Below are positions 4,335 to 31,572 of a stretch of DNA of 64,000 nt, piece after piece. A program made the position numbers and the translations under genes. Source of the DNA: an uncultured Dehalococcoidia bacterium (GTDB lineage Bacteria; Chloroflexota; Dehalococcoidia; GIF9; UBA5629); contig CAIMUM010000194.1 in NCBI GenBank assembly GCA_903844685.1, positions 17,292-81,291 on the forward strand, given 5' to 3'. Under the pieces are notes generated by a model. That model was not told where the DNA came from and ran no database searches. It was given only the letters and a program-made list of their open reading frames with translations. Each line of letters begins with the position of its first letter. Positions within the stretch are counted from its first letter, which is position 1.

Positions 4335-4362
4335 CGTTATCGCCTCCCCCGATATTACGCTT

Positions 4363-7629: not shown

Positions 7630-7631
7630 TG

Positions 7632-9387: not shown

Positions 9388-9393
9388 CTTCCC

Positions 9394-10242
9394 TTATTTC
9401 TCCGATTGACCGAATAGCCCCTGAGGGCGAAATAGCAGTATTACAATTACAATACCGAATGAGATGAGCTGCGACCAGAAACCGATATAATAGGCCAGCA
9501 TGCTGCCGATCATACCCAGCACGATGCCGCCAACCACGGCGCCACCCAGGCTGCCCATACCCCCGATCACTATGGCCAGCAACGCCATTACCAGCGGCTG
9601 GCCGCCGATCCACGGGTCGACGTAAAACATGGGTGCCATGATACCACCCGCCAGCGCTGCCAACCCGCAGCCGATCCCCATCACCAGTGTTGAAACACGC
9701 GCCACCTGTATGCCGAATAACCCGGCCGCCACCGGCTGCTGCGCCGCCGCCCTCAGCGCCAGTCCCAGCCTTGTCCGCTGGATGAATAAGTAAAGAGCTA
9801 TAATCAAAATCACGGCGATGACCACAGTAGCCAGCCTCTCGCTGCTCAGGCTGACGCCGAAGATGTCGACATTGCCCGGGAAGGCAGATGTCACCGAATG
9901 TGGCGCCGGTCCGGCGATTAGCGTAATCAGGCCTTCAAATACCGATATCAACGCAATGGTGACCACCACCGCCTGGATAGGCTGCCCGATGGGGCGCATG
10001 ATGTACCTTTCGATTAGTATGCCCACGAATCCTACAATGGCAGCAGATAGCGCCAGGCTGATAAAAAAGTTGATGCCGGCCTGTTGGAACAGGTAGAAGA
10101 TGGCATAGGCGCCCAGCATATAGAACTGGCCGTGGGCAAAATTGAGTATGCCCATGATGCTGAACACCAGCACCAGGCCGGAGGCCATCAATATATACAT
10201 GGAGGACAGCACCAGGCTATCTATAAATATTGCTGGCGGCAT
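9394..10242 (-). CDS. livH: ABC transporter permease LivH
   Basis: Polytopic membrane protein of the LivH type. Confidence 0.8.
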   Translation of the reverse strand: MPPAIFIDSLVLSSMYILMASGLVLVFSIMGILNFAHGQFYMLGAYAIFYLFQQAGINFFISLALSAAIVGFVGILIERYIMRPIGQPIQAVVVTIALISVFEGLITLIAGPAPHSVTSAFPGNVDIFGVSLSSERLATVVIAVILIIALYLFIQRTRLGLALRAAAQQPVAAGLFGIQVARVSTLVMGIGCGLAALAGGIMAPMFYVDPWIGGQPLVMALLAIVIGGMGSLGGAVVGGIVLGMIGSMLAYYIGFWSQLISFGIVIVILLFRPQGLFGQSEK

Positions 10243-10312
10243 GGATAATCCTTAGCTATCAGTATCATTGACCTTGTTCTTATGCAACGCGTTTTTCCGG
10301 TCAAATGCAATC

Positions 10313-11587
10313 TCATTCTTTAATCAGGTCGGTTACGTTAACCAGCGGGTGGTCCACATCCCACAGCGGCTCCTCATTGAGGTAAACGCTCTCGTTGCCT
10401 TTTATGATGCTCATGGCACAGGGGAAACCGAATACCACGGGTGAGCCGTAGGTCTCATTTCCCGACAGCGTGTATTTACCTAAAAATGTCTCTACGGTCC
10501 CACCGCGCAGCACCTTCATCACCTGGTCCGGATCTGTGCTGCCGGCCATGCGCACGCCCTCGAGGTACTGTCCCATCATGGTAACACCTACCCCAAAAGC
10601 ACCGGCATAGGGCTCTTTCCCTTCGTATTTCTGCTTATATGCCTCACGGATACGGTTGGCCATATCCAGGTAACGCGGCGCTATTTGTACCTTCTTCAGC
10701 AGCCAGGGGTAGCAGAAATCACCGCAGATGTTCTGCATTGCTTCCTCGCTGCCGGCCAGGCCTTTTACGATTTTGGTATCCAGGATCGCCCCGTTAGCCG
10801 CTACCGGCCACTTATAGCCAAGCTGGTAACGCTGCCTGGCCATCAAACCTATCTCCAACGGTGTCCCGAAGCTGAACAGCACCTCGGCCCCCATCTCGGC
10901 CATCTTGATCAGATAGGGTGTGAAATTGGTGGTGCCCTCTGGGTAGTACAGCCTGATGCTCCTCACGCCGTACTTCTTCTGTATCTCTTCATCAACCGGA
11001 GCGTAGATCTTCTCGATGTCCACATTGCCGCCCTTGGTAGCGGTCCAGCATAGCGTCTTGTACTGCGGGAAGGCCTGCATCACCGCCATGGCCTGGTTTA
11101 TGCTCATCTCTATCGCCGGGAATCCGAAGATTGAATAAGGTTCCCGGGATGCGCTATAGGCACCCATACTGATGGTGCTGGTATTAAAAACCACTTTTTC
11201 CGCGTTGCAAATAGGGGCCACGGCTGAGTAACCAACGCCGAAATAGCTGACGATGGCAGATACCTGTTTATCGTAAATGAGTGTTCGCGCCGCCGCCGCG
11301 TCGGCCTGAACACTGAAAATGGGGCCGTCGGCGAAATACAGCTCAATAATGTATTTATCATCACCCACCTGCCATCCGCCGTCGGCGTTAATAAGGTCGC
11401 GGTATATCTCCATCACCGGTTTGATCGATTCACCCCACATACTGGCAGGGCCGGAGAATGGCATGATACTGCCGATTTTGAGGATTTTAGGCGGCGCCGG
11501 CGCTTTGGCCGCCGGTGCGGCGCAGGACGTAATTATAGATAGTACCAGGACAACCACCAGAGCTATATAAATAAATTTCCTTTTCAA
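10313..11587 (-). CDS. LivK-family periplasmic substrate-binding protein (lipoprotein signal); ligand not inferable
   Basis: A signal peptide with a Cys follows a TTG start behind an AGGAGAGG RBS. The type I periplasmic binding fold is present. It is the first gene of the K-H-M-G-F operon. Confidence 0.75.
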   Translation of the reverse strand: MKRKFIYIALVVVLVLSIITSCAAPAAKAPAPPKILKIGSIMPFSGPASMWGESIKPVMEIYRDLINADGGWQVGDDKYIIELYFADGPIFSVQADAAAARTLIYDKQVSAIVSYFGVGYSAVAPICNAEKVVFNTSTISMGAYSASREPYSIFGFPAIEMSINQAMAVMQAFPQYKTLCWTATKGGNVDIEKIYAPVDEEIQKKYGVRSIRLYYPEGTTNFTPYLIKMAEMGAEVLFSFGTPLEIGLMARQRYQLGYKWPVAANGAILDTKIVKGLAGSEEAMQNICGDFCYPWLLKKVQIAPRYLDMANRIREAYKQKYEGKEPYAGAFGVGVTMMGQYLEGVRMAGSTDPDQVMKVLRGGTVETFLGKYTLSGNETYGSPVVFGFPCAMSIIKGNESVYLNEEPLWDVDHPLVNVTDLIKE

Positions 11588-11778: not shown

Positions 11779-13458
11779 TTAGTTCTTACCCTCCTGCTTC
11801 GCGATCTCTTCATCGCGGAGCTGGCGCTTGAGTATCTTGCCAACCGGGCTGACTGGCAACTCTTCCCTGAACTCGACAAATTTTGGTACCGAGTAGGAGG
11901 CCAGCTTCTCCTTGCATAAAGCAAGTATATCCTCTTCCTTCACCTTGTTTTTATAAGCTTCCCTGAGCACTATGAAAGCCTTGACTCGATCGCTGCCCGG
12001 CCTGTCCTTATCTGGCACGGCCACAGCCGCAGCCAGTTCCACACCCGGATGCTCGTAGAGCACCTTTTCCACCAGTATAGTATAGACCTTCATGCCTGAT
12101 ACGTTGGCCATATCTTTTACGCGGTCGGTAATATAGAAGTAGCCATCGTCGTCCATCCTGACCACGTCGCCCATGGGTAGCCAGCCATCTTCCACTAGGC
12201 CGCTGCCCGGCGTGGGCCAGTAACCCTGCATGATCTGCGGGCCGCGTACCCACAGCTCACCCTCCTTGCCGGGCTCGGCATCCTTGCCGGTCTCGAGATC
12301 GATGATCCTGGCTTCAACGTCCGGCATGGGAACCCCTATTGCGCCAAACTTCTTGACCGCGCACAGATCCGAGATGGATAAATTGGCATGGGTGCCCCCA
12401 CCCATCTCTGAAGCGCCGTAGCTATCGCCGATACTTGCCCCAGTCTCCTCTTTGAATTTGTCTATCATGTCCTTGCGCAGCGGCGCGGTTGAGGATACAA
12501 AGCCCGTTTTCACCTGCCCCAGTCCCATTTCCAGCAGCTTGGCATACTGGGTGGGTACACAGGATGCGCCGGTAGGCTCATTCTCCTTGATCACCTTCAT
12601 CAACGTTTTCAAATCGCGCGGGTCGGCGACCAGGTAGACTTCAAATGCCCAGAAGATACAGAATTGTGTATAAGTCATACCGAACTGGTGATATAGCGGT
12701 ACACCGATCAGCCAGGATATCTTCCCTTTTAACAGCGATTCCATGGGGCTGAAAGCCCAAGCCATGTGGCTAAGGTTGGCCATGCGACTGTTGTGCGTCA
12801 GCATCACTCCCTTGGGTATTCCCGTGGTACCGCCGGTGAAGATAAGCTCGGCCAGGTCCTTGCCCGGGTCGATGTCCACCTTCGGTGGCTCGGGCGCAGA
12901 CTTATCTATCAGGTCGCGGAACTGGTGTGCTCCGGGCACATGCTTCAATGATTCAGGTTGTATAGAATAATCTGCTACCGAGGTCACAATAATGCGAGTT
13001 ACCTTCGTATAATCTTGCATCTTGGTGACCACTTCGAGCATTGTGTCCATGCAGATGACGGTCTCCGCGCCAGACTCGCTAATTTCAGAAATTAGCTCGT
13101 TTTCCTTGTGCAGCGGGCTGCAGGGCACATGCGCGGCCCCGGCTTTGAGTATGCCAAAGTCACTGATGATGAACTGCGGGCAGTTGGCCAGTATGGTCGC
13201 TACCCGGTCACCTTTCTTTATGCCCAGCTTCACCAGTGCAGTGGCAAACCTGTCGGCCAGTTCCTTCAGTTCCTTGTAGGAGATAACCTTATCCATGTAA
13301 TGCACAGCCGGCCTATCGGCATAGTCACGCGCGCTATTGTCCAGCACGCTGTAAAGGGGCACATTGGGATAAGGTTTAATCGACTCGGGTAACTTAACAA
13401 GTCCCTGCTGTCCCAGGTCGTATTGTTTGAGCCAGGGTTTGGCTGCCGGTGATACCAT
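11779..13458 (-). CDS. AMP-dependent acyl-CoA synthetase/ligase
   Basis: AMP-binding motifs are present (TGGTTGIPKGV, YGASE, GDVVRMDDDGYFYITDRVKD). The start was moved to MVSPAA behind an AAGGAGGA RBS. Confidence 0.85.
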   Translation of the reverse strand: MVSPAAKPWLKQYDLGQQGLVKLPESIKPYPNVPLYSVLDNSARDYADRPAVHYMDKVISYKELKELADRFATALVKLGIKKGDRVATILANCPQFIISDFGILKAGAAHVPCSPLHKENELISEISESGAETVICMDTMLEVVTKMQDYTKVTRIIVTSVADYSIQPESLKHVPGAHQFRDLIDKSAPEPPKVDIDPGKDLAELIFTGGTTGIPKGVMLTHNSRMANLSHMAWAFSPMESLLKGKISWLIGVPLYHQFGMTYTQFCIFWAFEVYLVADPRDLKTLMKVIKENEPTGASCVPTQYAKLLEMGLGQVKTGFVSSTAPLRKDMIDKFKEETGASIGDSYGASEMGGGTHANLSISDLCAVKKFGAIGVPMPDVEARIIDLETGKDAEPGKEGELWVRGPQIMQGYWPTPGSGLVEDGWLPMGDVVRMDDDGYFYITDRVKDMANVSGMKVYTILVEKVLYEHPGVELAAAVAVPDKDRPGSDRVKAFIVLREAYKNKVKEEDILALCKEKLASYSVPKFVEFREELPVSPVGKILKRQLRDEEIAKQEGKN

Positions 13459-13617
13459 GACATCCTCCTTTTTCAACCTCAATTTGTTAGCGTAACATCA
13501 CTGTTTGAACTTGATCTCTACGATAGAATTGCTGCTCTGCCTTTGTGGTTAGTTCCGCAAAGACAATGATTATTGTAACACAGACATCAAAATTGGAAAA
13601 TACATAGAAAAAAATCA

Positions 13618-13678: not shown

Positions 13679-14086
13679 ATGGCCGTATTTGCTACACAGG
13701 AATGGCTCGACGAGATTGCCAAGCTATTGAATGAAGATCCCGCTTATGCAGAGGGCGCCAAGGGCTGGGAAGGGGATTTCCTGTATATCATCGAACCTGA
13801 CGAGCTTCAACCGAACCCCAGCTACTATTATATGGACCTGTACCACGGGAAATGCCGCAAGGCAGTAGTGCTCAAGGACCCCTCTAAAGTGAAGGCTGAA
13901 TTTGAGCTGTCAGCTACTTACTCGGTCTGGAAAAAGATACTGACTGGTGAACTCGACGGCATGAAGGCCATGATAACGCGCAAGATGAAGTTCAAGGGCG
14001 CTATCGCCAAGGTGATGAAGGACACCAAGTCCCAACAGGCCTATGCCAAGGCCCTTGCCCCACTTAAGACAGAATACGTTAAATAA
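13679..14086 (+). CDS. SCP2 sterol-carrier domain protein
   Basis: 135 aa SCP2-fold protein (…ITRKMKFKGAIAKVMKD…) behind a GGGAGGT RBS. Confidence 0.7.
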   Translation: MAVFATQEWLDEIAKLLNEDPAYAEGAKGWEGDFLYIIEPDELQPNPSYYYMDLYHGKCRKAVVLKDPSKVKAEFELSATYSVWKKILTGELDGMKAMITRKMKFKGAIAKVMKDTKSQQAYAKALAPLKTEYVK

Positions 14087-14161
14087 CTATCCAAATGCAT
14101 CCCAGTGCTGTGCACCATAGTATGCCTGTCCGCACTGATAATATTTCAGGAGGTAGCTCAT

Positions 14162-15325
14162 ATGTGGTATTTCCGTAATCCATTGATCGTGTTCGGTGAT
14201 GACGCGCTGGAACACCTCAGGGAGATTAAGGGTAAGCGCGCCCTAATTGTGACCGACGCAGTACTGGTCAAACTGGGTTTTGTAGATAAAGTCGCTAGAG
14301 AACTGAAGCACGCCGGTATCGAGCATCGCGTTTTCTCCGAGGTGGAACCGGACCCATCCGTTGATACTGTCAGAAAGGGCGCACAGGTTGCGCTTGAATA
14401 TGAACCTGACTGGCTGATCGGACTGGGTGGCGGTTCGGCTATGGACGCGGCCAAGATGATCTGGATGCTATATGCGCAACCCGACACGGAACCGTACGCC
14501 ATCGTACCCTTCCAGGATTACGACGCGCGCAGTAAAGCCCGCATGATATGCATACCGACCACGGCGGGCACAGGCTCAGAGGTGACCTGGTTCATGGTGG
14601 TTACGGACACAGTCGAGAGAAGGAAGATAGCCGTGGGCACTCCTGAGGCCTTACCGGATATCGCGATATTGGATTTCCGCTTGGTGGGAGATATGCCGAA
14701 GGGCCTGGTGGCCGATACCGGCATGGACGCGCTGACCCACTGTGTTGAGGGATTTGGCTCGACCTGGCGTACGGATTTCACCAATGGCCCTGCATTGATG
14801 GCAATGAAGTTGATCTTCAAATACCTTAAGCGCTCATACGACGACGCTTCGGATAAGGAGGCCAGGGAGCACATGCTCAACGCCTCAGCGCTGGCCAGCA
14901 TGGCCTGGAGCAACGGCATGGCCGGACTGGCGCATAATATGGGCCACGCGCTGGGCGGCTTCTTCCATGTTACACATGGCAAATCCGTCGGACTCTACCT
15001 GCCTTACAACATGCAGTACCTGACCGAGGCCGGGGCCGAAGTCTTCGCTGAGGCCGCCCGGTTCATTGGTCTGAAAGGGAAGACCGATCTTGAACTAACC
15101 CGGGGGTTAGTCAGCGGAATAAAGGATATGGCCCGCCATCTGGGACAGCCGTCATCAGTAAAAGAGCTTAACATTGACAAAGCCGCCTATGAGAAGGCGC
15201 TGCCGGAGATGGTTGCTCGGGCCATCGGTGAGGCCTCCACCCCCACTGTCCTGCGCGTACCGGATGAGAAGGACATGGAGCGCATGTTCCTCTATGCTTA
15301 TGAGGGCAAAACTATAGACTTTTAA
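14162..15325 (+). CDS. Iron-containing alcohol dehydrogenase
   Basis: The Fe-ADH family is indicated by GGGSAMDAAK and the His-rich metal site (HCVEG, HNMGHALGG). The start was set at MWYFRN behind AGGAGGT. Confidence 0.85.
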   Translation: MWYFRNPLIVFGDDALEHLREIKGKRALIVTDAVLVKLGFVDKVARELKHAGIEHRVFSEVEPDPSVDTVRKGAQVALEYEPDWLIGLGGGSAMDAAKMIWMLYAQPDTEPYAIVPFQDYDARSKARMICIPTTAGTGSEVTWFMVVTDTVERRKIAVGTPEALPDIAILDFRLVGDMPKGLVADTGMDALTHCVEGFGSTWRTDFTNGPALMAMKLIFKYLKRSYDDASDKEAREHMLNASALASMAWSNGMAGLAHNMGHALGGFFHVTHGKSVGLYLPYNMQYLTEAGAEVFAEAARFIGLKGKTDLELTRGLVSGIKDMARHLGQPSSVKELNIDKAAYEKALPEMVARAIGEASTPTVLRVPDEKDMERMFLYAYEGKTIDF

Positions 15326-15371: not shown

Positions 15372-16556
15372 GTGGATTTCAGATTAACGCCTGAACAGGA
15401 AAAGCGCAGACAGGAATATCACGCGGTGTGCAGCGAGTTGGCCCTCAAGGCACCGCACCCTATCCTGGGGGAGAAGGGGATTTTCGGCACTGAGCATGGG
15501 TGGAAGTATTTTCGCTATTGTGCTAAAGAGTTTGCCAAAAGAGGCTGGCTGTCGCTGAGTTGGCCGGCGGAGTACGGCGGCAGGGGCGACCGTATGGACC
15601 AGGTCCTGCTGGCTGAGGCCATGGGTTATAACGGTGTCCCCGGCATCGACCCCTTCGGAGTAGGCATGCTGGCTCCCACCCTGCTGGCAGTTGGCAGCGA
15701 AGAGTTGAAAAAGGAGTTCCTACCACCTATAGCCAGATCTGATGTGATGTGGTGCGAACTCTGGAGCGAACCCAATGCTGGATCCGATCTTGCAGCTCTG
15801 ACAGCAACAGCCATCCGTAAAGGCGACGAATATGTCATCAACGGGCAAAAAACCTGGAACACCAATGCCCACAACGCCGACTGGGGATTTGGCATCTTCA
15901 AGAGTGACCCGGAGGGGAAGAAACACAGGAACCTCAGCTTTCTTCTGATGGATATGAAGACGCCCGGTATAACCGTGCGCCCGCTGTATTATATGAACGG
16001 CGGCCACATCCTGAACGAGGTATACTTCGACGACGCGCATGTGCCGGCCAGGAATCTGGTTGGAAAAGAACATGGGGGATGGGCGGTGGTCAACGTTCTG
16101 GCGGGGTTTGAGAGGTCCAACATGGGAGCGGTCGCGGGTATGCGCCGTGCGTTGGAAGAGATCGTCCACTACTGCAACGAAACAATTGTGAACGGGCAGC
16201 TTCGGTCACGGGATCCCATTATTCGCAACCGCCTGGCGCAATTAGCCTGCGAGATCGAGGCTATGTCTACACTGGGTTACCGCATCGCCGACCAGCAGAA
16301 CAGGGATGAAATGGGATTGATGGATGCCTCAGCTATGAAAGTGTTCTCGACCGAATTGGAAGAGCGTTTCGCGGCGCTGGCAGTAGACATTTTCGGGCCC
16401 TCCGGCCAGATTACGGAAGGCAGGTGGGCTCCCATGGGAGGGCATTGGATCAATGCCCTCCAGGAGAGCTTTGTGGGCACAATTTCCGCCGGTACCAATG
16501 AGATTCAGCGGAACATTATAGCCTGGTACGGGCTCGGCCTGCCCAGGATGAAATAA
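15372..16556 (+). CDS. Acyl-CoA dehydrogenase (ACAD) family
   Basis: GTG start behind GGAGGT. The ACAD N/M/C domains and the C-terminal GTNEIQRNII motif are present. It is a paralog of 62800..63984. Confidence 0.85.
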   Translation: MDFRLTPEQEKRRQEYHAVCSELALKAPHPILGEKGIFGTEHGWKYFRYCAKEFAKRGWLSLSWPAEYGGRGDRMDQVLLAEAMGYNGVPGIDPFGVGMLAPTLLAVGSEELKKEFLPPIARSDVMWCELWSEPNAGSDLAALTATAIRKGDEYVINGQKTWNTNAHNADWGFGIFKSDPEGKKHRNLSFLLMDMKTPGITVRPLYYMNGGHILNEVYFDDAHVPARNLVGKEHGGWAVVNVLAGFERSNMGAVAGMRRALEEIVHYCNETIVNGQLRSRDPIIRNRLAQLACEIEAMSTLGYRIADQQNRDEMGLMDASAMKVFSTELEERFAALAVDIFGPSGQITEGRWAPMGGHWINALQESFVGTISAGTNEIQRNIIAWYGLGLPRMK

Positions 16557-16739
16557 TTGGCAAGGTTGAGTTTGACACGCGCATGAAATCGCTGTGATTG
16601 CTTTTCGCGGTAATGATAAGGTAAGATTCAGAGGCCCGTTAAAGAGAGAGGCCACAATACCTCTGGAGATCGAGGTTTGAGCTAAAGGCATAGTCAACAC
16701 AGTATACACAAAATATTTTGAGGAGGAGGACGACCCAAT

Positions 16740-17702
16740 ATGCAAAGGCCGGTTTCGGCTTACACAGACCGTGATGACGCGTTGCATCCTTATGCTAATC
16801 CCGCGTATTACGAGTGGTGGTATTTAGATGCAAGGTTTGATAACGGGTATTCATGCGTCCTGTCCTGGCACTGGCTTAACGAGTTTTTAAAGCCTCACAT
16901 ACCCACCGTACAAATCTTCATTTATACGCCGGAAGGCAAGAGGTATGTAGGTATGGACGGGATAGATCCTAAAGACTGCTCCGCGAGCCAGGAGTATTGC
17001 AATGTCAAGATGGGGAGCAGCTACCTGCGGCAAGAGGGCAAGGTTTACAATATGTCAATGCACAGCCGTAATATTGGTTGCGATCTTACGTTCCAGGGCA
17101 CTATACCAGGTTGGAAAATCGGTGACGGCAAAATTCCTATTAATGGTGGAGAAATGGTTCAAGGTTGGGTAATTCCCTGCCCCAGGGCAAGGGTGGAAGG
17201 TAAACTATTTATCAAGGATAAAGAAATTCAGGTCAAAGGAGATGGATATCACGACCATAACTGGGGAAACGCCGATCTGTACGACATTTTCCATGGCTGG
17301 TACTGGGGGAGGTTAAACGATCCGAAATATACGATTATTTTCTCCAACACCCGGGCTTTAAACGGCCAGGTCCTGCCCTATCTCTACGTTGCCGATAATA
17401 AATCGACCCTGTTATCAACCGATAAATACGATTTTATCGTTGAGAAGGAGGAACCTGATACAGCTACCGGGCAGACGTATGCCAAAGCCCTTACACTAAA
17501 ATACAACGGCGACGATATGAAATTAAGGTGCAGGCTTGATACCAAGAGCGTGGTCGAACACACTCCACTCCCCAAGGTTAATGAATACAACATGTTCAAC
17601 TGGAGATTCCTGGCAGATTACGAAGGTGAGATCACGTTCGACGGTAATACCGATAAGATTAGAGGCGAAACAATTCACGAGAGGTTCCTTTTCAGGGGTT
17701 AA
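16740..17702 (+). CDS. Hypothetical protein, CrtC/AttH-like (carotenoid 1,2-hydratase family) lipocalin-fold hydratase candidate
   Basis: The N-terminal ...PAYYEWWYLDARFDNG... is reminiscent of the EWWY hallmark of the CrtC/AttH family. No cofactor motifs are present. The gene sits inside the beta-oxidation operon. Confidence 0.4.
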   Translation: MQRPVSAYTDRDDALHPYANPAYYEWWYLDARFDNGYSCVLSWHWLNEFLKPHIPTVQIFIYTPEGKRYVGMDGIDPKDCSASQEYCNVKMGSSYLRQEGKVYNMSMHSRNIGCDLTFQGTIPGWKIGDGKIPINGGEMVQGWVIPCPRARVEGKLFIKDKEIQVKGDGYHDHNWGNADLYDIFHGWYWGRLNDPKYTIIFSNTRALNGQVLPYLYVADNKSTLLSTDKYDFIVEKEEPDTATGQTYAKALTLKYNGDDMKLRCRLDTKSVVEHTPLPKVNEYNMFNWRFLADYEGEITFDGNTDKIRGETIHERFLFRG

Positions 17703-17789: not shown

Positions 17790-18935
17790 ATGCCTGACAG
17801 AGTTGGAATAGTGGCGGCCGCAATGACGAAATTTGAGGCGGCCAAACCCTGGCAACATCTCGCTGAACTGGTGCTGGAGGTGACGGACAAGGTTGTCGAA
17901 GCTGCCGGCATCTCACTTCAAAAAGATGTGGAAAGCATAGTCAGCTGTTCACAGGATCACTGGGACGGCAGGACGATTTCCTCGATGCCCATACCTGATG
18001 TTACCTGCGGCCACCTGAAGGATGAGTCAAAAGTAGCTGACGATGGCGCTTATGCCGTTCTCTATGGCGCCATGCATATTCTTTCGGGCGATCATAAATT
18101 AGTACTGGTTGTCAGTCACTGCGCTGAATCGCACACCGACGGCACTATTATTGAGAACTGGTCGATCGATCATATTTTCACGCGTATGCTTGGCCTTGAT
18201 TACACTTTGGCAGCAGCCATGCAGGCCAGAAGATATATGGACAAATACGGTATTACCCCCGAACAATTTGCCAAAGTGGTGGTTAAAAACAAGGGTAATG
18301 CCAAAAAGAATCCATACGCGCAGGATTCGGCAACATTGAGCGTAATTGACGTTCTGAAGTCGCAGATGCTGGCGGATCCTATTACGGTGATGGACAGGAA
18401 ACCTGTATCCGACGGCGCCTGTGCCATGATACTTGCCACGGAGGAGATCGCTAAAAAACTAACCGACAAACCGGTGTGGATAAAGGGAGCCGGCAACTGT
18501 TATGATCCACACTTTCTGGGGGACCGCGAACTGGCCGATTGCGACGCCCTAGAAACTGCATCCAAGAAAGCGTATAAGATGGCGGGCATCAAGAACCCGG
18601 TTAAAGAGATAGATGTTGTGGAACTATCTGAATATTATTCCTACCAGGAGCTTTTATGGACAGAGGGCCTTGGTTTATGCAAACGGGGAGAAGGCGGGAA
18701 GTTCATCGATAGCGGAAAGACACAATTAAATGGTGATATACCGGTTAACCCGTCGGGTGGCTTGCTATCTGGTATTCCCATTACCGTAGCAGGGATGTCA
18801 AGGGTTGCGGAGGCTGTCTGGCAATTGCAGGGCCGGTCGGGAGAGAGACAGATCCCTGGCGCTAAGCTGGCAGTAGCCCACGGCTGCGGTGGAATCTGCG
18901 GCCAGATGCATTGCGTCCTGGTATTGGGAAATTAG
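17790..18935 (+). CDS. SCP-x/Ltp-type thiolase-fold protein (catalytic His replaced: ...SGIPITVAG...)
   Basis: The thiolase superfamily fold resembles the paralogs at 20099, 21350 and 50052. The GHP motif is absent. A DUF35 pair follows. Confidence 0.7.
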   Translation: MPDRVGIVAAAMTKFEAAKPWQHLAELVLEVTDKVVEAAGISLQKDVESIVSCSQDHWDGRTISSMPIPDVTCGHLKDESKVADDGAYAVLYGAMHILSGDHKLVLVVSHCAESHTDGTIIENWSIDHIFTRMLGLDYTLAAAMQARRYMDKYGITPEQFAKVVVKNKGNAKKNPYAQDSATLSVIDVLKSQMLADPITVMDRKPVSDGACAMILATEEIAKKLTDKPVWIKGAGNCYDPHFLGDRELADCDALETASKKAYKMAGIKNPVKEIDVVELSEYYSYQELLWTEGLGLCKRGEGGKFIDSGKTQLNGDIPVNPSGGLLSGIPITVAGMSRVAEAVWQLQGRSGERQIPGAKLAVAHGCGGICGQMHCVLVLGN

Positions 18936-18968
18936 TAGAACTACGGATTAATTGGAGGTAATAGATAT

Positions 18969-19457
18969 ATGAAAGCTAAGCCGCAATTAGAACTGATTTA
19001 CCTGGATATGACCCTCAAAATGCCATTCAAGTGGAACACCGGTGAGCCACTGGGAGAATTTTTCAGGGAACTGAAGGCAAACGAAAAGATCTATGCAAAT
19101 CAATGCCCCACCTGCGGACGTAATTACTGCCCCCCGGCAAATATCTGTACCAGGGATCATTCGAGATGCAACGAAAAAGATAAATGGGTAGCCGTGGGGC
19201 CCAAGGGCACACTCTTAACCTTCTTCATCTGCGAGCAGTCATTTTTAATCCCAACCACAGGCGAGATGCTGGAGGTACCCTTTAGCGTGGGACTCGTTAT
19301 GCTTGACGGCGCGCCGGTTGTGCTTCAGCACTGTTTGCAGGAGACCGATGTGGAGAAAATTAAACCCGGCATGCGGGTAGAAGCCGTTTTCAAACCTAAA
19401 GAAGAGCGCAAGGGCAATATTTTCGACATTATACACTTCAAGACTATCAAGGAATAA
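18969..19457 (+). CDS. DUF35 protein (rubredoxin-like Zn ribbon + OB fold), thiolase/aldolase partner subunit
   Basis: A CPTCGRNYCPPANIC Zn-ribbon is followed by an OB-fold region. It is the ChsH2-DUF35 / BbsA type. Confidence 0.75.
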   Translation: MKAKPQLELIYLDMTLKMPFKWNTGEPLGEFFRELKANEKIYANQCPTCGRNYCPPANICTRDHSRCNEKDKWVAVGPKGTLLTFFICEQSFLIPTTGEMLEVPFSVGLVMLDGAPVVLQHCLQETDVEKIKPGMRVEAVFKPKEERKGNIFDIIHFKTIKE

Positions 19458-19481
19458 TAACTTTAAGAAGAGAGGCTAATA

Positions 19482-19952
19482 ATGGCTAACGAAGTTGTAA
19501 AGAAAGAACCTATGTTCACCGAAGGCTATGTGATCATGCCTTATAAGTACTCTGTGGGTACACTGGCAAGCAAGTTTTTCATCGAGATCAGAGACCATAA
19601 GAAAATAAACGGCGTGAAATGCCCTAAATGCAATATAGTAATAGTCCCTCCCCGGTCTGTATGCATAAAGTGTTTCAACAAAATCGAGGATCTGGTTGAA
19701 TTGAGCGGGAAAGGTACCCTGGTAACTTATACAGTGGCTCACTACGATTCGGCTGTTCAGGCGATGAAGCCACCGTATGCAATCGGAGTGATCAAGCTGG
19801 ACGGCGCTGATACAGCGATAACGCATTTTATCGGCGAAGTCGATTTCAAGGAGCTTAAGGCCGGCATGAAGCTGGAAGCTGTATTCAATGAGACCAGGAA
19901 TGCCAATATCCTTGATATCAAGTATTTCAAGCCGGTTAAAAATAAAGGATAA
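19482..19952 (+). CDS. DUF35 protein (Zn ribbon + OB fold), second copy
   Basis: The Zn ribbon is CPKCNIVIVPPRSVCIKC. Its architecture and size match the preceding gene. Confidence 0.75.
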   Translation: MANEVVKKEPMFTEGYVIMPYKYSVGTLASKFFIEIRDHKKINGVKCPKCNIVIVPPRSVCIKCFNKIEDLVELSGKGTLVTYTVAHYDSAVQAMKPPYAIGVIKLDGADTAITHFIGEVDFKELKAGMKLEAVFNETRNANILDIKYFKPVKNKG

Positions 19953-20098
19953 AAGCATTAAATTATCTCAGCTTTCAAATGAACCGGGATCATAATCATT
20001 AGGCATTTGCCCGGTGACCAAGAAATGCAATTGAGATGATTATACAGATTTGATCCGCTTTATATTACCCCTATTCTTTAATTGTTGAGAGGTGAATT

Positions 20099-21265
20099 AT
20101 GACACAACGTGTAGCTATAGTCGGCATCGGCCAGACCAACCATTCGGGAAGGCGTCCTTATCATAACGACGGTGAGGTAATCTACGATGCTATCAGCGCA
20201 GCCCTTGCAGATGCCCAGTTATCTATAAAAGACATTGATAACGTAATTATAGGTGATATGGAACTCTTCGAAGGCCATAGTCTGAATGACGCCATGTTGC
20301 TGGATTACACGGGCGCTGAGGGCAGATCCGGCTTCAAGATGAACACGGGTGGAACCGTGGGCTCTATGAATGTGATCTCAGGCTGGTATAACGTAGCATC
20401 CGAATTCAGCGATACTACCCTGGTTATCGGTTGGGAAAAGCACGACGAAGGACCGACCACTTCAGCTATAACCACTATCTGGGACCCCGCTATAAACCGG
20501 CCATTTGAAGTCGGCGCCATTTCCGGTCTGGCCATGATCTCCAATGCATACATGACGAGGAGCGGCTGTCCCCTCGAAGTCGGGGCGATTGTCCGTGCTC
20601 AGGCCTCGGACAATGCAGCGAGAAATCCCAAGGCTCATTTGAGGGAAAGGTATACTGTCCAGGACGTTATGAGCGCAAGAATGGTGCTATATCCGCTGAA
20701 TTTGCTGATGATCTGTCCCACAAGCCTGGGTGCATGCGCCCTGGTATTGGCCGGCGAGAAAAAAGCCAGGAAAATAAATAAAAAACCGGTATGGATCAGG
20801 GACCATGCTACTGCACACCAGGTAACCCGCGGCATGGATTTCATGGCCGAAGCGGGGAAAATAGACACGTCAATGACTGTAACGGGAAGGAAAATTTTCC
20901 AACGTAACCATATTACCAAGCCGATGGAAGAGATACAGGTCTTCGAGATGTACGATCCGTGCGCTTTTTGCCAGCCTGCCTGGCTGGAAGAATTTGGCCT
21001 CTGCGAGGCTGGTCAGGGTTGGCGCCTGATTGAAAAAGGTGTTACGGCCAGAGAAGGATCGTTTCCGGTTTCTCCCTCCGGCGGTACATTGTGTACTAAC
21101 GCTATAGGCGATACAGCCACCGTGCGTGTGGCCGAGGCGGCTTTACAATTGCGGGGCGATGCCGGAGAACACCAGGTGACCAGGGAAGTGAAAATGGCTC
21201 TGGCCAGCGGTTACGGTGGTATGTACTGGACCGACCTGCTGCTGCTCAGCAATACGCTGGATTAG
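20099..21265 (+). CDS. SCP-x-type thiolase-fold protein lacking all thiolase catalytic residues (aldolase/scaffold candidate)
   Basis: It aligns with the bona fide thiolase at 50052. NFCATGS becomes NTGGTVGS, so the nucleophilic Cys is absent. CFGHPIGASG becomes CTNAIGDTAT, so the His is absent. The C-terminal Cys is also absent. Confidence 0.75.
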   Translation: MTQRVAIVGIGQTNHSGRRPYHNDGEVIYDAISAALADAQLSIKDIDNVIIGDMELFEGHSLNDAMLLDYTGAEGRSGFKMNTGGTVGSMNVISGWYNVASEFSDTTLVIGWEKHDEGPTTSAITTIWDPAINRPFEVGAISGLAMISNAYMTRSGCPLEVGAIVRAQASDNAARNPKAHLRERYTVQDVMSARMVLYPLNLLMICPTSLGACALVLAGEKKARKINKKPVWIRDHATAHQVTRGMDFMAEAGKIDTSMTVTGRKIFQRNHITKPMEEIQVFEMYDPCAFCQPAWLEEFGLCEAGQGWRLIEKGVTAREGSFPVSPSGGTLCTNAIGDTATVRVAEAALQLRGDAGEHQVTREVKMALASGYGGMYWTDLLLLSNTLD

Positions 21266-21349
21266 CCTGCGGGGCTGGTTAGATTTTGGATGGCAGGAAT
21301 CTCATTAAAAGGGATTGGCAATACTAAAAATAGATTTTAGGAGGCCGGT

Positions 21350-22519
21350 ATGTCACATAGAGTTGCTATTACAGGAATAGGGCAGACACGTCACTCAGGC
21401 CGCCGGCCTTACCATAACGACGGTGAGATGATCCATGAAGCGGTGAGCCTGGCCCTGGCCGATGCCGATATCAGCATTAAGGACATTGACACTGTCATCA
21501 TCGGCAATATGGACTTGTTCGAAGGACATTATCTTAACGATGCTATGCTAGCGGACTATTCCGGTTCCATAGGTAAATCAGGCTTTAAAATGAACACGGG
21601 CGGCACGGTAGGCACCATGGAAGTCATTACAGCCTGGTACAATATCGCTTCAGGACAAAGCGATACAGTTCTGGTAATCGGCTGGGAGAAGCACGACGAA
21701 GGCCCGGTTACCTCGGCCATCACCACAATTTACGAACCTGCCTACACGAGGTGGTTTTCCGTGGGTGCGCTATCAGGGTTGGCACTATTATCGGACGACT
21801 ATTTACGGCGTGCAAACTGTCCGATGGAAATCGGCGGGATTGTCCGGTCATACATGTCGGAAAATGCCTCCCGCAATCCCAATGCCCATTTAAGGGAAAA
21901 GTATACAGTTCAGGACGTAATGAACGCCCGCATGGTACTCTACCCCCTCACTCTGCTCATGATCTGTCCAACCAGCCTGGGCGCCTGTGCCATGGTGCTG
22001 GCCAAAGAAAGCAAGGCCAAAAAGATGACTAAAAAGCCGGTCTGGATAAAAGATCACGTCACAGTCCATGCCGAGGAGGGTGGCGGGCTCTTTGATGCCC
22101 TGAGCGGAGGACCCCGCCGCACTACAGAGACGGAAGCAGGCAAGACTATATTGAAGCGGAACCACATCACCAAGCCCCTGGAAGAAATACAGCTCTTCGA
22201 AATGTACGATCCCTGCCCATTCTTCCACCCCTTCTTCCTTGAGGATTTCCAGCTCTGTCCTGAGGGTGAAGCGTGGAAACTCATTGAGAAGGGGTTAACG
22301 AGCAGGGAGGGCTCATTCCCTATCTCTCCATCTGGTGGGGTCATGTGCACCAATGCCATCGGCGATTCCGGCACCTTGCGTGTGGCCGAAGCTGCCCTTC
22401 AACTGCGCGAAGACGCCGGCGAACATCAGGTGACCCGCAAGGTAACGCAGGCCCTGGCCAGCGGGTTCGGCGGCTCGAACTGGACCGATCTCTTCCTGCT
22501 CACCAATTCGCTGGACTGA
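21350..22519 (+). CDS. SCP-x-type thiolase-fold protein lacking catalytic residues, tandem paralog of 20099..21265
   Basis: The N-terminal ~130 aa are roughly 70 % identical to the previous gene. The same Cys and His substitutions are present. Confidence 0.75.
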   Translation: MSHRVAITGIGQTRHSGRRPYHNDGEMIHEAVSLALADADISIKDIDTVIIGNMDLFEGHYLNDAMLADYSGSIGKSGFKMNTGGTVGTMEVITAWYNIASGQSDTVLVIGWEKHDEGPVTSAITTIYEPAYTRWFSVGALSGLALLSDDYLRRANCPMEIGGIVRSYMSENASRNPNAHLREKYTVQDVMNARMVLYPLTLLMICPTSLGACAMVLAKESKAKKMTKKPVWIKDHVTVHAEEGGGLFDALSGGPRRTTETEAGKTILKRNHITKPLEEIQLFEMYDPCPFFHPFFLEDFQLCPEGEAWKLIEKGLTSREGSFPISPSGGVMCTNAIGDSGTLRVAEAALQLREDAGEHQVTRKVTQALASGFGGSNWTDLFLLTNSLD

Positions 22520-22950: not shown

Positions 22951-24159
22951 CTATCTTTGCAGGTTCTCTATGATCGCGCAGATTCCAAGTCCGCCGCCGA
23001 CACAGGTGCTGAACATACCATATTTCCCGCCGGTGCGGATCAATTGACGCATAGTGAACATGCCGATCCTGGCACCGGAAGCGCCGTTGGGATGTCCGTA
23101 GGCAATAGCGCCGCCCAGCGGGTTCCATTTTTTGCGGTCTACTTTTTCACCTGTTTGCTTTTCAAGTTCCTTTATAACCGCCAGTTGTTGCACAGCAAAG
23201 GCCTCATTGCATTCCATGTGATCGAAATCAGCAATCTTCAGTCCAGACCGTTTCATGGCTATAGGTATAGCGTAGGCAGGGCCAATACCCATGATCTTCG
23301 GGTCGCAGCCGTAATCTGCACCCGTAATCCATCTGGCCATCGGTTTGTACCCCAGTTCCTTGGCTTTGTCAGCGCTCATCATCAGGACGAAAGATGCACC
23401 ATCATTCATACCGGAGGAATTACCCGCGGTTACCGTACCGTCCTTTTTAAACGTGGGCGGAAGCTTGGCCAAACCTTCCAAGGTGGTGTCAGGACGAGGA
23501 TGCTCATCTTTATTGAATACAATATCGGGGGCCTTTTTGCCGCCCGGGATGATCACCGGGACTATCTCATCTTTGAAATAATCGTTGTCCATGGCCATTT
23601 TTGCTCTCATCTGGCTCTGGTAAGCGAACTCGTCGGAAGCTTCCCGCGGAATGCTATACATAACCTGCAGGTTCTCGGCCGTTGTTCCCATACCAACGTT
23701 ATCTTCCGGATTCGGGGACAAAGTAGGCATGACGGGCATTGGGGGGATTTGTTTATATGGCGCCGTAGTCGTCGGGAACTTGTGGTAAAAATTGCTGTGG
23801 GAATCCATGCCGCCTGCTATGATAATATCCGCCTGGTTGGCAAGGATTTTCCATGCAGCATGGTTGATAGTGTCAATAGATGAACCGCACTGCATCTCGA
23901 GAAAGTGCGATGATGTTTCTATGGGTAGCCCGGCCGCCAGAGTAACCCAGCGCCCCATGTTCAGGGTGTTTACACTACCAAATGCAGACCCGGCCATAAC
24001 ACAGTCCACCTTGCCACGCTCTGTAATCTTTGTTTTCTCAATCAGGCCTTTCATAACAATGGCCCCCAACTGATTAGGCAAGATATCGCGGATCGTACCG
24101 CCCATTTTCCCAAAAGCTGACCTCATACCGTCAACGAAAACTACTTCTCTCTGTGCCAT
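22951..24159 (-). CDS. Acetyl-CoA C-acyltransferase (canonical degradative/biosynthetic thiolase)
   Basis: The Cys nucleophile is in EMQCGSS. YGHPNGASG and CVGGGLG motifs are present. The start was set at MAQREV behind GGAGG. Confidence 0.85.
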   Translation of the reverse strand: MAQREVVFVDGMRSAFGKMGGTIRDILPNQLGAIVMKGLIEKTKITERGKVDCVMAGSAFGSVNTLNMGRWVTLAAGLPIETSSHFLEMQCGSSIDTINHAAWKILANQADIIIAGGMDSHSNFYHKFPTTTAPYKQIPPMPVMPTLSPNPEDNVGMGTTAENLQVMYSIPREASDEFAYQSQMRAKMAMDNDYFKDEIVPVIIPGGKKAPDIVFNKDEHPRPDTTLEGLAKLPPTFKKDGTVTAGNSSGMNDGASFVLMMSADKAKELGYKPMARWITGADYGCDPKIMGIGPAYAIPIAMKRSGLKIADFDHMECNEAFAVQQLAVIKELEKQTGEKVDRKKWNPLGGAIAYGHPNGASGARIGMFTMRQLIRTGGKYGMFSTCVGGGLGICAIIENLQR

Positions 24160-24569
24160 TTGTTCCTCCAATAATATAAAACTTATTTGGCGTTTTGATG
24201 TCTGCCATAGTGCGACATCCGCACAATAATTGTATATGATTACGCCCCAAAATCACCAGCGAACGTGTGGCGCCTCTGTCCCCGGCGCTCCTTATATAAT
24301 TAAGCTTGGATTTTACATTATTAGCATGGAAATCACAATTTTCGAAGTCGAAATCCAGCTTTACTAATCATTATCCCTGGGGCGGATAGCACGGCTAAGT
24401 CTAGCTCCGATCTAAGCAGGCGCCCGGACAGCCTGGGTAGCCAGGGTGACAAGGTGGAAGTATTGGCTCTTCAAGGATCAGGAGCGCGCTGAAGTGGCTA
24501 TAGAGAGGATTTGGGTAATAGCTCCGGATAAGGGAGGGTCCAGCAGGCCAGGAGGGCCTGGAGGGGTCA

Positions 24570-24763: not shown

Positions 24764-25957
24764 ATGCCGGGTTTGATGCTGGAGGGTGTCAAGATCATTG
24801 ATTTCACCACTACCGTCGCGGGACCTGCCTGCTCCCAATTCCTATCACAGTTAGGGGCCGAGGTAATCAAAATCGAGTCGCCAGTCAAGATGGATGATGC
24901 CCGCTATTATCCACCGTACAAAGGTTCTTTCTCTATTTCGTTTGCCGCTGCTAACATAGGAAAAAGATGTGTGACCATCGATCTTAAGAAGCTGGAAGGT
25001 GTGGCACTGTTCAAAGAAATGGCCAAAGCCTGTGATGTCTTCTTGGAGAATTATACACCTGGCACCGTCAAGCGACTGGGTATTGACTACGATGCACTGA
25101 AGGACCTCAACCCCAGGCTCATCATGTGCTCTATCTCTGCCTACGGTCAGACCGGGCCGCTTTCCAGCCTGCCCGGTTACGACGCAACCATCCAGGCTAT
25201 GACTGGACTGATGAGCGTTACCGGCTACCCGGACCGTCCGCCTCTCCGGTCGGGGACATTGGTCGTTGATGTCAGTACGGCATTCTGCGCGGCCCTCTCC
25301 ATCTGCGCAGCGCTCTATGCACGGCAGATATCAGGAATTGGGACTCACCTCGATATCGCTATGTACGATGTAGGTATTAATCTGCTCGAGTCCAAATTTG
25401 TGGATTATGCCAATACGGGCAACGTTCCCACCCGCACGGGCAACCGCTTCCCCTTCATCTCACCCTTTGACACCTACCAGACGAAAGACTCCTACGTAAT
25501 GATTATCTGTGCCGGCGACGGTCCTTTCATCGACCTGTGCAATGGTATGGGAATGCCCGACCTGCCCACAGACGAGCGTTTCAAGGACATCTTCACCCGC
25601 AATGCCCACGAACCAGAACTAAAAAGAATAATTGAAGACTGGTCCACTCAATATACTACGGCAGAGGTAGTTGAGAAGCTCATAGCTGCCGGGGCCCCTG
25701 TAGCCGCTGTACATGATATCAAGCAGGCCATAGACCACCCGCATACACAGGCACGCGGTATGCTCAATGCTGTTGAACAGCCAGGGGTTGGCAACCTGGT
25801 GTTGATGGGCCCGCCGGTAAAGGCCTCCAATTACCAGGTCGGCAAGCCCGGACACACCCATAGTCCAGGGGAGGATAATATATGGCTACTCAAAGAAATT
25901 CTGGGCAAGAGCGAAGCTGAGATACAGAAGATCAGCGAGTCAAAGGTGATGGGTTAA
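24764..25957 (+). CDS. Family III CoA-transferase (CaiB/BaiF; alpha-methylacyl-CoA racemase / succinyl-CoA:acid CoA-transferase type)
   Basis: The CaiB/BaiF fold is present with the conserved Asp region. The RBS is GGAGG. Confidence 0.8.
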   Translation: MPGLMLEGVKIIDFTTTVAGPACSQFLSQLGAEVIKIESPVKMDDARYYPPYKGSFSISFAAANIGKRCVTIDLKKLEGVALFKEMAKACDVFLENYTPGTVKRLGIDYDALKDLNPRLIMCSISAYGQTGPLSSLPGYDATIQAMTGLMSVTGYPDRPPLRSGTLVVDVSTAFCAALSICAALYARQISGIGTHLDIAMYDVGINLLESKFVDYANTGNVPTRTGNRFPFISPFDTYQTKDSYVMIICAGDGPFIDLCNGMGMPDLPTDERFKDIFTRNAHEPELKRIIEDWSTQYTTAEVVEKLIAAGAPVAAVHDIKQAIDHPHTQARGMLNAVEQPGVGNLVLMGPPVKASNYQVGKPGHTHSPGEDNIWLLKEILGKSEAEIQKISESKVMG

Positions 25958-31519: not shown

Positions 31520-31572
31520 TTTAACCTCCCTGATTTGTGTATTTAAAAATACCGCTAATGCGTGTGAATAAT

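Follow-up and report, generated by a model that had tools for sequence, protein, structure and literature searches.

What does a relative of carotenoid 1,2-hydratase do in the middle of an operon for coenzyme A (CoA)-dependent catabolism? The question is raised by the open reading frame (ORF) at positions 16740..17702 (+) of a 64,000-nucleotide stretch of DNA from an uncultured Dehalococcoidia bacterium (the window), for which a preliminary description, made from the letters alone, had proposed a hydratase of the CrtC/AttH type in a catabolic setting, paired with a CrtI/CrtD-like flavoprotein encoded about 10 kb away. The catabolic setting holds. The best explanation overall, which we favour with modest confidence, is that the encoded protein is a hydro-lyase acting mid-pathway in the anaerobic catabolism of a methyl-branched, probably isoprenoid-like acid. 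The fold, its probable chemistry and the involvement of one fold member in anaerobic isoprenoid-side-chain catabolism are already known; new is a conserved catabolic clade that occurs in three phyla of anaerobes together with a thiolase-fold/DUF35 complex lacking the thiolase cysteine and with a phytoene-desaturase-family flavoprotein. A literature search found no description of this AttH-like clade or of its association with thiolase-fold/DUF35 genes.

Fold, family and catalytic residues

The ORF is intact from ATG to stop (320 codons), is preceded by a Shine-Dalgarno-like run (GGAGGAGGA) about 10 nt 5′ of its start and is opposed by many stops on the other strand. The YYEWWYLD motif, which had been likened to the CrtC/AttH hallmark, is present at residues 23-30, where the Pfam CrtC profile (PF07143) for the N-terminal lipocalin domain of CrtC begins; the match reaches 23.8 bits against a gathering cutoff of 22.5 and runs end to end (protein residues 25-177 on profile positions 2-168 of 168). 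Further motifs are QGW (141-143), GDGYHDHNWG (167-176) and GWYWGR (186-191). PF07143 is matched by 41 of the 47 aligned family members (best E 5.5e-9), and the related Svf1 (19.5 bits) and AsqO_C domains match the protein below threshold, the Svf1 lipocalin being weakly matched by 17 of the 47 as well. Among 5.8 billion proteins there are 114 full-length homologues, 17 of them 68-89% identical, and an exhaustive HMMER search of cluster representatives gave 1252 relatives at E<=1e-3. Most of the 114 are unnamed or carry the automatic name “predicted secreted hydrolase,” and one is called “carotenoid 1,2-hydratase” by NCBI. Secretion is unlikely, since inspection of the N-terminus revealed no visible signal peptide, hydrophobic stretch or membrane anchor.

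A single-sequence search of the PDB returned chance matches only, and the family profile was required to find AttH (2ich, E 2e-7, the best match) and kievitone hydratase (7a0q, E 2e-6). The same profile aligned by hhalign with the CrtC of Roseobacter litoralis at 89% probability and E 2e-6; this reference is a genuine CrtC, whose gene overlaps crtD beside phytoene synthase on plasmid pRLO149_94 (locus L091). The AF2 model, built on the family alignment, is all-beta and lipocalin-like (pLDDT 95.4, pTM 0.92), and Foldseek again places AttH first (E 3e-13, TM 0.69, probability 1.00), with this fold family alone at E<=1e-8. The other matches are the Diels-Alderases CghA, Fsa2 and Phm7, kievitone hydratase and 25-phosphosteroid lyase (structure released 2026), the last two also at probability 1.00. 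Given the many homologues and the agreement of profile, hhalign and Foldseek matches, the resemblance to AttH and CrtC is not due to chance, and the protein is almost certainly a member of the AttH/CrtC double-barrel superfamily, as the preliminary description had supposed. Of the two outcomes that it had named as refuting, a lack of significant profile hits and a structure unlike a lipocalin, neither occurred. CrtC itself, which it had named alongside, did not hold up: the NCBIfam CrtC equivalog (NF045922), whose cutoff lies at 400 bits, reaches 25.2 bits, over residues 143-210 only, and tblastn against R. litoralis crtC gives 22.7% identity. By these scores, the protein is a superfamily-level relative of CrtC and not its orthologue. 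A fungal lipocalin-like Diels-Alderase was likewise considered and rejected: the fold is alike (7dmn, 7e5t, 6kbc), but the Diels-Alderase domain DA_N (PF24137) has no match in the protein, and polyketide synthase and non-ribosomal peptide synthetase genes are missing. DA_N is matched by 24 of the 47 relatives at E<=0.01, and two archaeal relatives scored singly remained below its 27-bit cutoff.

In Rubrivivax CrtC, His239, Trp241, Tyr266 and Asp268 are essential, Asp268 being the proposed proton donor (PMC4717167), while Trp283 and Trp285 stabilise the carbocation, and their mutation kills the enzyme (PMC12402844). The numbering of the Rubrivivax enzyme (RgCrtC) was transferred by motif from these two papers via the R. 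litoralis CrtC, not via the RgCrtC sequence itself. In the hhalign alignment the CrtC motif GEGYFDANFG corresponds to GDGY170-H-D172-H-N174-WG, FSYWTWGR to FHGW187-Y-W189-GR, and HIW...P to QGW(143)...P148. Five of the six CrtC residues (Trp241, Tyr266, Asp268, Trp283 and Trp285) thereby fall on W143, Y170, D172, W187 and W189, each of them fully or almost fully conserved in the 47-sequence family alignment. Within YYEWWYLD, E25, W26, W27, Y28 and D30 are invariant, and the EWWY part may take the place of CrtC Trp110. The family has invariant polar residues of its own (E25, D30, H171, N174 and R289, with R191 nearly invariant). In the PDB alignment of the family profile the AttH motif “WLDREW ... 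GWDW” and the kievitone hydratase motif “WYDRQWG ... NWTW” occupy the same columns. Judged from these alignments, the acid/aromatic catalytic face of CrtC is retained.

The thiolase-fold/DUF35 complex and the gene neighbourhood

The closest genome is a metagenome-assembled one of an uncultured Dehalococcoidia bacterium (75% identity). Relatives above 37% identity occur in Chloroflexota, Desulfobacterota (Desulfatitalea, Desulfocicer and others) and Spirochaetota/Leptospirales, and relatives of about 30% identity are widespread in Actinomycetota, Asgard archaea, Bathyarchaeota and plasmids of Agrobacterium and Rhizobium. For synteny, the neighbour proteins of the window were compared with all fetched loci, and the precomputed annotation of several contigs was inspected. 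The AttH-like gene adjoins genes for two thiolase-fold proteins (ThlA and ThlB) and two DUF35 proteins in 12 loci, which make up two separated neighbour-joining subclades, namely the window's own Dehalococcoidia group (L004-L008) and a group of 37-44% identity from Desulfobacterota and Spirochaetota (L018-L022, L024, L088). For relatives below 35% identity, a thiolase-fold gene lies no more than 8 kb away in only one of 63 loci. The position of the window gene between an acyl-CoA dehydrogenase (ACAD) gene and thiolase-fold/DUF35 genes (17790..22519) was already recognised in the preliminary description, which had nevertheless overlooked that this complex directly downstream, and not the flavoprotein, is the strongest and most conserved partner.

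ThlA, ThlB and the ThlB paralogue ThlC all have the nucleophilic Cys and the catalytic His of thiolases replaced. When ThlB is aligned with the SCP2-thiolase 6hsj and the archaeal thiolase 6esq, Cys becomes Gly, HDCF becomes YDPC and His becomes Asn; in ThlA, the nucleophilic Cys is Asp, HDCF reads SEYY and GHP reads SGIP. The ThlA and ThlB substitutions are conserved in every lineage examined, across three phyla that include the Desulfobacterota and Spirochaetota orthologues, and judged by these residues ThlA/ThlB/DUF35 is no thiolase complex. Ltp2 (YDHF) and Sal (YDCY), the retro-aldolases of steroid side chains, have also lost the nucleophile, carry Tyr as the first residue of the HDCF motif and have a DUF35 partner; enzymes of this type cleave beta-hydroxyacyl-CoAs and always act together with a hydratase (PMC12329534). 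ThlB and ThlC show the same traits, with the Cys lost, Tyr at the first HDCF position, which is that of the aldolase base, and two adjacent DUF35 genes. At the second catalytic position (Tyr344 in Ltp2; Cys304 of YDCY in Sal) they have Y-D/E/L-P, with Pro at the Cys/His position, and the Cys of the window's YDPC motif is not conserved across lineages. Because the second catalytic residue differs from that of Ltp2 and Sal, the complex is called aldolase-like in a putative sense, as one that resembles these enzymes.

Between the ACAD gene and the AttH-like gene the window retains 32 codons of a MaoC-type hydratase gene, corresponding to residues 71-102 of an intact 143-residue MaoC at the same place in L004. 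Since the L004 contig is 89-92% identical to the window, the MaoC gene has evidently been lost recently from the window genome. MaoC is also absent from L005-L007 and was not detected in L019-L022; it is thus dispensable in these clusters, while the AttH-like gene persists throughout.

The second protein of the proposed pair, at 27050..28390, is a flavoprotein of the Amino_oxidase type (Pfam, 81 bits) and does lie about 10 kb away. Its best NCBIfam matches (an unnamed family, carotenoid isomerase, HpnE and the CrtI family) all remain far below their cutoffs, with 58.6 bits against 238 for crtI_fam, 46.4 against 580 for CrtD and 68.5 against 587 for carotenoid isomerase, and BLASTP against R. 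litoralis CrtD gives E 2e-4 over residues 6-228 only. These sub-cutoff scores and the weak CrtD match led us to reject orthology with CrtD or CrtI. The AF2 model (pLDDT 92.7) is nearest to 3ka7, an uncharacterised Methanosarcina oxidoreductase (Foldseek E 1e-27), followed by the gamma-carotenoid desaturase 4rep (E 2e-25), PF1083 and the rice phytoene desaturase (TM 0.79-0.81), with amine oxidases close behind; the nearest characterised structural neighbours are thus the carotenoid desaturases 4rep and 5mog. The protein belongs to the amine-oxidase/phytoene-desaturase FAD superfamily and is “CrtI/CrtD-like” at the superfamily level only. Its homologues come from uncultured Dehalococcoidia, Syntrophales and other Deltaproteobacteria and are automatically named “prolycopene isomerase” or “phytoene dehydrogenase-like.” A flavoprotein gene of the same Pfam family lies directly downstream of the AttH-like gene in the Spirochaetota loci L019 and L022, within 7 kb in the Desulfobacterota loci L024 and L088, and about 10 kb off in the window and the Dehalococcoidia loci L004, L005 and L007. 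Because it recurs across these three groups, the link is more than coincidence. Of the suggested CrtC/CrtD-type pair, the association therefore stands, but neither partner is CrtC, CrtD or CrtI. The flavoprotein probably makes or moves a double bond; a catabolic precedent is the oxygen-free oxidation of an allylic methyl group (PMC4109377).

ACADs, MaoC/ECH, BKACE and CoA ligases are often near the AttH-like gene in loci of the clade. In L088 the order is TetR, 3HCDH, BKACE, flavoprotein, ECH, thiolase, ThlA, ThlB, a DUF35-DUF35 fusion and the AttH-like gene, followed by MaoC, three ACADs and an acetyl-CoA-synthetase-like ligase. In L019 it is TetR, 3HCDH, ECH, thiolase, ThlA, ThlB, DUF35, DUF35, AttH-like and flavoprotein, after which come a thiolase, DUF35, a second ThlA/ThlB pair, DUF35, PHP, a phosphoenolpyruvate (PEP)-mutase/isocitrate-lyase-family gene and an aconitase-family gene; the last two (the former methylisocitrate-lyase-like) perhaps serve a methylcitrate-type handling of propionyl-CoA. 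PHP-type phosphoesterase genes stand at the operon ends of L019 (17579-20579) and L088 (17997-20259), in L088 together with Lactamase_B and Metallophos_2 genes.

Table 1. Features around the AttH-like gene, in window coordinates
Feature	Position	Strand	Remarks
Liv-type ATP-binding cassette (ABC) importer	6913..11587	-	2 ATPases, 2 permeases, Peripla_BP_6 binding protein
AMP-forming acyl-CoA ligase	11779..13482	-	divergent from operon
SCP2 lipid-carrier-like protein	13679..14086	+	first gene of + strand operon
Iron-containing alcohol dehydrogenase (Fe-ADH)	14105..15325	+	
ACAD	15372..16556	+	best NCBIfam match PimC large subunit, below its cutoff
MaoC-type hydratase remnant	16582..16677	+	32 codons; tblastn 66% identity/32 aa, E 5e-8
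AttH/CrtC-superfamily protein	16740..17702	+	320 aa; Pfam, family alignment, AF2, Foldseek, hhalign
ThlA, thiolase-fold (SCP-x type)	17790..18935	+	without thiolase catalytic residues
DUF35 protein a	18969..19457	+	zinc ribbon and OB fold
DUF35 protein b	19482..19952	+	weakly BbsA-like
ThlB, thiolase-fold	20099..21265	+	aldolase-like residue pattern
ThlC, tandem ThlB paralogue	21350..22519	+	~68% nt identity, same substitutions
Canonical thiolase	22951..24171	-	Thiolase_N 218 bits, Thiolase_C 124 bits
Family III CoA-transferase	24764..25957	+	
Short-chain dehydrogenase/reductase (SDR)	26042..26986	+	
FAD oxidoreductase	27050..28390	-	446 aa; amine-oxidase/phytoene-desaturase (COG1233-type) superfamily
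AMP-forming acyl-CoA ligase	28404..29993	-	

The scan for promoters and terminators gave no more sites than shuffled sequence, and only one site stands out, a promoter-like sequence upstream of the SCP2 gene (13618-13646) with 11 of 12 consensus matches. A fumarate-adduct (bbs-like) pathway had been considered on account of the family III CoA-transferase, SDR, ACAD and BbsAB-like genes. It was rejected, since neither the CoA-transferase nor the SDR is retained with the AttH-like gene at the other loci, no glycyl-radical enzyme is present in the window, and the thiolase-fold proteins have no catalytic Cys for BbsB-type thiolysis.

Elsewhere in the window, a second branched-chain-type cluster (48474-55327, -) encodes two ACADs, a thiolase-fold protein, three MaoC-type proteins and a 480-residue fusion of an HMG-CoA-synthase/KAS-III-like domain with DUF35, and resembles steroid igr-type or LrcC-type systems. 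Three ACAD genes follow each other at 30386-34113 (-), and a further one at 62800-63984 (+) is 66% identical in DNA to the ACAD at 15372-16556; seven ACAD paralogues in 64 kb are unusually many. At 992-3007 (+) lies a gene for an OYE-type flavoenzyme fused to a pyridine-nucleotide-disulphide reductase domain (2,4-dienoyl-CoA/enoate reductase-like), a 75%-identical homologue of which is encoded 1.6 kb from an AttH-like paralogue in the Dehalococcoidia locus L027, where three tblastn matches to the AttH-like protein resolve into two distinct copies. A URO-D/MtaA-like methyltransferase gene beside that of a B12-binding corrinoid protein (3018-4998, -), possibly an anaerobic O-demethylase/methyltransferase system, is followed by an alpha-L-fucosidase gene (5301-6710). 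The 437-residue RuBisCO large-subunit-like product of 42600-43913 (-), encoded beside a class III aminotransferase, is probably no carboxylase but a RuBisCO-like protein; between its gene and that of an FGGY kinase (44995-46530) lies a gene for a TetR-family regulator (44259-44933).

Copies of the AttH-like gene are multiplied in Chloroflexota, with a tandem duplicate in L007 (10001-11980), three copies in L017 and at least four, on separate contigs (L010, L011, L014, L016), in the metagenome-assembled genome LacPavin_0920_SED4_MAG_48_8; the paralogue in L016 (41% identity) is also preceded by SCP2 and Fe-ADH homologues. Archaeal relatives of about 30% identity in Bathyarchaeota (L031, 5345-10951) and Heimdallarchaeota (L034, 9911-15466) lie beside FAD_binding_4 and CCG/Fer4_8 genes, as two separate FAD_binding_4 genes in L031 and one 1071-residue gene in L034, which are similar to dehydrogenases of the GlcD/GlcF or HdrD type. 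With these neighbours the family has a second conserved association, distinct from the published Ted-Hgs pair.

Proposed function and competing explanations

The product of 16740..17702 is fairly probably a soluble, cofactor-independent catalytic hydro-lyase of the AttH/CrtC superfamily. The characterised hydratases of the fold (CrtC, kievitone hydratase and Hgs) protonate an isoprenoid C=C to give a tertiary alcohol (PMC4717167; PMC5805349; bioRxiv 10.1101/2025.10.20.683597), and 25-phosphosteroid lyase works at a carbon of this kind in the opposite direction (PMC11061730). By analogy, Asp172, on the Tyr170-x-Asp172-x-Asn174 strand face, would protonate a non-activated, probably trisubstituted C=C, Trp26/27, Trp143 and Trp187/189 would stabilise the resulting carbocation, and addition of water would yield a tertiary alcohol; the reverse dehydration would be possible at the same site. 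The presence of a Liv-type ABC importer and CoA ligases in the cluster indicates that the substrate probably enters as a carboxylic acid, which places the enzyme mid-pathway and speaks against the oxygen-independent activation of a hydrocarbon terminus envisaged in the preliminary description. This substrate would be a lipophilic, methyl-branched acid, imported by the Liv-type system and then converted to its CoA ester. Hints at a branched or lipophilic substrate come from the SCP2, alcohol dehydrogenase, ACAD, CoA ligase and importer genes of the window, the methylcitrate-like genes of L019 and the window cluster with the HMGS-like::DUF35 fusion; PDB homologue searches of the Liv binding protein and the CoA ligase yielded generic matches only and no clue to the substrate. 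An isoprenoid-like acid is the most plausible form, though this part of the proposal is tentative and falls a little short of probable.

The immediate functional partner of the hydro-lyase would be the ThlA/ThlB complex with its two DUF35 proteins, acting like the retro-aldolases that cleave at fully substituted carbons. A dedicated hydratase-aldolase partnership of this kind is, on balance, less likely than not. As an illustration only, a phytenic-acid-type route could lead by hydration to a 3-hydroxy-3-methyl acid, by retro-aldol cleavage to a methyl ketone, and further to a beta-keto acid and BKACE; BKACE and the acetoacetyl-CoA-synthetase-like ligase fit such a route, while a ketone carboxylase is not present. 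Precedents are anaerobic terpene pathways (PMC4109377; PMC12583861), among them methanogenic limonene degradation, for which formation of a tertiary alcohol and then aldol-type cleavage were proposed for the isopropenyl branch (PMC12583861).

Several observations weigh against the hydro-lyase proposal. His239, essential in CrtC, corresponds to Gln141, and Gln is the family consensus. The additional invariant polar residues suggest a more polar substrate, possibly bearing CoA or a carboxylate, or a different chemistry. The fold also hosts enzymes other than hydratases, namely the Diels-Alderases and the phosphate lyase seen with Foldseek, and the ordinary MaoC/ECH hydratases of many clusters could carry out all hydration steps. 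Finally, close relatives are also solitary (L001-L003, L089) or accompanied by a CoA ligase and TetR regulator only (L090). The solitary copy of Deltaproteobacteria HGW-12 (L001-L003, ~10300-12640), which is 68% identical, has IS21 (IstB) and rve transposase genes on its flanks, suggesting recent mobility of the AttH-like gene.

Some of these points would be accommodated if the same fold and acid/aromatic site served a reaction without net hydration. As a double-bond isomerase, the protein would protonate one carbon and deprotonate another, so that an isolated C=C becomes conjugated to the thioester and open to attack by MaoC/ECH; as a lyase, it would release a leaving group bound to a tertiary carbon, a reaction known from 25-phosphosteroid lyase in the anaerobic degradation of the cholesterol side chain. 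Many of the clusters encode conventional hydratases (MaoC, ECH), which leaves no obvious need for a second one. The phosphosteroid lyase, an enzyme from an anaerobe with an isoprenoid side chain as its target (PMC11061730; PMC8449060), is matched by Foldseek (9g4c, 9fzn, 9g2i; E ~1e-8, TM 0.57-0.60), and the Gln at the His239 position and the PHP-type genes that end the L019 and L088 operons also agree with such a reaction. However, neither single-sequence nor profile PDB searches detect similarity to the lyase, the conserved cluster holds no kinase gene, the best sequence and structure matches are AttH and hydratase members, and the Tyr-x-Asp-x-Asn face is common to CrtC. We regard an isomerase or lyase as a serious but clearly less probable alternative.

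A non-catalytic role, in which the protein would bind lipids or act as a scaffold, lipocalin-like as proposed for Svf1, and deliver a hydrophobic substrate to ThlA/ThlB/DUF35, is improbable. The weak Svf1 matches and the SCP2 carrier gene, which implies a need for lipid handling, would fit it, but the operon already has a carrier in SCP2, and the invariance of D172, Y170, H171, N174, E25, D30 and R289 down to 24% identity is typical of an enzyme. A true CrtC that makes pigments together with a CrtD-type desaturase, to which the Pfam domain just over threshold, the flavoprotein 10 kb off and one automatic name might point, is effectively refuted by the scores of both proteins given above and by the context, since phytoene synthase, polyprenyl synthase/CrtE and CrtI are all missing among the annotated large ORFs (at least 140 aa) across the window and non-phototrophic anaerobes share the conserved operon with its ACAD, thiolase-fold, DUF35 and CoA-transferase genes.

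With the hydro-lyase as the preferred reading, a more speculative and rather doubtful extension would be that a cofactor-free AttH-fold hydratase has taken the place of MaoC beside a heteromeric Cys-less thiolase-fold/DUF35 aldolase, to which it would be dedicated, the two forming with the flavoprotein a hitherto undescribed oxygen-independent module that cuts methyl-branched (isoprenoid) chains at tertiary carbons. Uncultured Dehalococcoidia and Desulfobacterota are abundant in sediments. If the extension were true, the module would occur widely among the Dehalococcoidia, Desulfobacterota and Spirochaetota of sediments, would be a candidate answer to how acids derived from phytol, pristane and archaeal lipids are degraded without oxygen, and would yield a concrete gene set for the way in which branched (isoprenoid) lipids are broken down anaerobically in sediments, which is poorly understood. 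Being compact and conserved, the cluster lends itself to heterologous expression. The characterised AttH-type hydratases are all biosynthetic or detoxifying, so that a catabolic clade linked to a retro-aldolase-like complex would extend the biology of the family. Cofactor-free hydration of non-activated double bonds is rare and wanted in biocatalysis (PMC12402844; PMC6013536).

Comparison with known systems

Among known proteins, AttH (NE1406, PDB 2ich) is nearest both in structure and in the profile search. The CrtC proteins of Rubrivivax gelatinosus, Thiocapsa roseopersicina and R. litoralis share the two-barrel fold family, PF07143 over its full length, and the G-x-G-Y-x-D-x-N-x-G and W-x-W-G-R motifs with the essential Tyr, Asp and Trp (PMC4717167; PMC12402844), and in both cases a phytoene-desaturase-family flavoprotein gene is near. 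The window protein differs from CrtC in its low identity and far sub-cutoff equivalog score, in the exchange of His239 for Gln, in having no visible counterpart of the membrane anchor described for RgCrtC (PMC12402844), and in its catabolic context in non-phototrophic anaerobes instead of a crt/photosynthesis cluster. The plasmid relatives of about 30% identity, annotated as lipocalin-like, in Agrobacterium tumefaciens (pAtLMG292b; L092, 5893-6969) and Rhizobium (pMK-3; L093, 5884-6945) have the motifs YEWWY.DA, GYHDHNWGN and GW.WGR in common with it; their neighbours are a TetR regulator and an NAD-dependent epimerase (Agrobacterium) or GNAT (Rhizobium), without thiolase-fold/DUF35 genes, and the GenBank name “carotenoid 1,2-hydratase” of the Rhizobium protein is probably wrong.

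Kievitone hydratase of Nectria haematococca (7a0q/7a0t), a fungal enzyme with a phytoalexin substrate, hydrates a prenyl C=C to a tertiary alcohol without a cofactor (PMC5805349). It resembles the window protein in its aligned Asp and Trp columns and its fold (Foldseek E ~2e-11), but shares 15% identity in the Foldseek alignment and has no CoA-pathway context. For the fold in anaerobic catabolism there is a single precedent, the Sterolibacterium denitrificans 25-phosphosteroid lyase, which works on an isoprenoid chain at a tertiary carbon (PMC11061730; PMC8449060). Its reaction removes phosphate and does not add water, and it requires a 25-hydroxysteroid kinase that has no counterpart in the conserved cluster. 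A steroid pathway with an analogue of this lyase was therefore rejected, given also that a molybdoenzyme, as expected for the Mo-dependent C25/C26 dehydrogenases of that pathway, is missing from the conserved cluster and sequence similarity is undetectable. Hgs, the archaeal AttH-like hydroxy-GDGT synthase, is paired with the desaturase Ted, a B12-radical-SAM enzyme (bioRxiv 10.1101/2025.10.20.683597). By its published description it belongs to the same family and likewise couples a desaturase with an AttH-type hydratase for oxygen-free isoprenoid hydroxylation, in this case in archaeal biosynthesis with Ted as the partner; the notion that the archaeal relatives in L031 and L034 are Hgs was dropped, as their neighbours are FAD_binding_4 and CCG/Fer4_8 genes and not Ted.

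The arrangement of the cluster as a whole recalls the ChsH1-ChsH2/Ltp2 and Shy/Sal systems, in which a hydratase gene also stands beside a Cys-less thiolase-fold gene with Tyr at the first HDCF position and DUF35. Those systems act on steroid side chains and have the motif YDHF (Ltp2) or YDCY (Sal), while the clusters described here read Y-D/E-P, combine two different thiolase-fold subunits with two free-standing DUF35 proteins, and belong to strict anaerobes in which no other steroid genes were seen; and where the conserved hydratase-like partner of Ltp2 and Sal is of the MaoC type, here it has the AttH fold.

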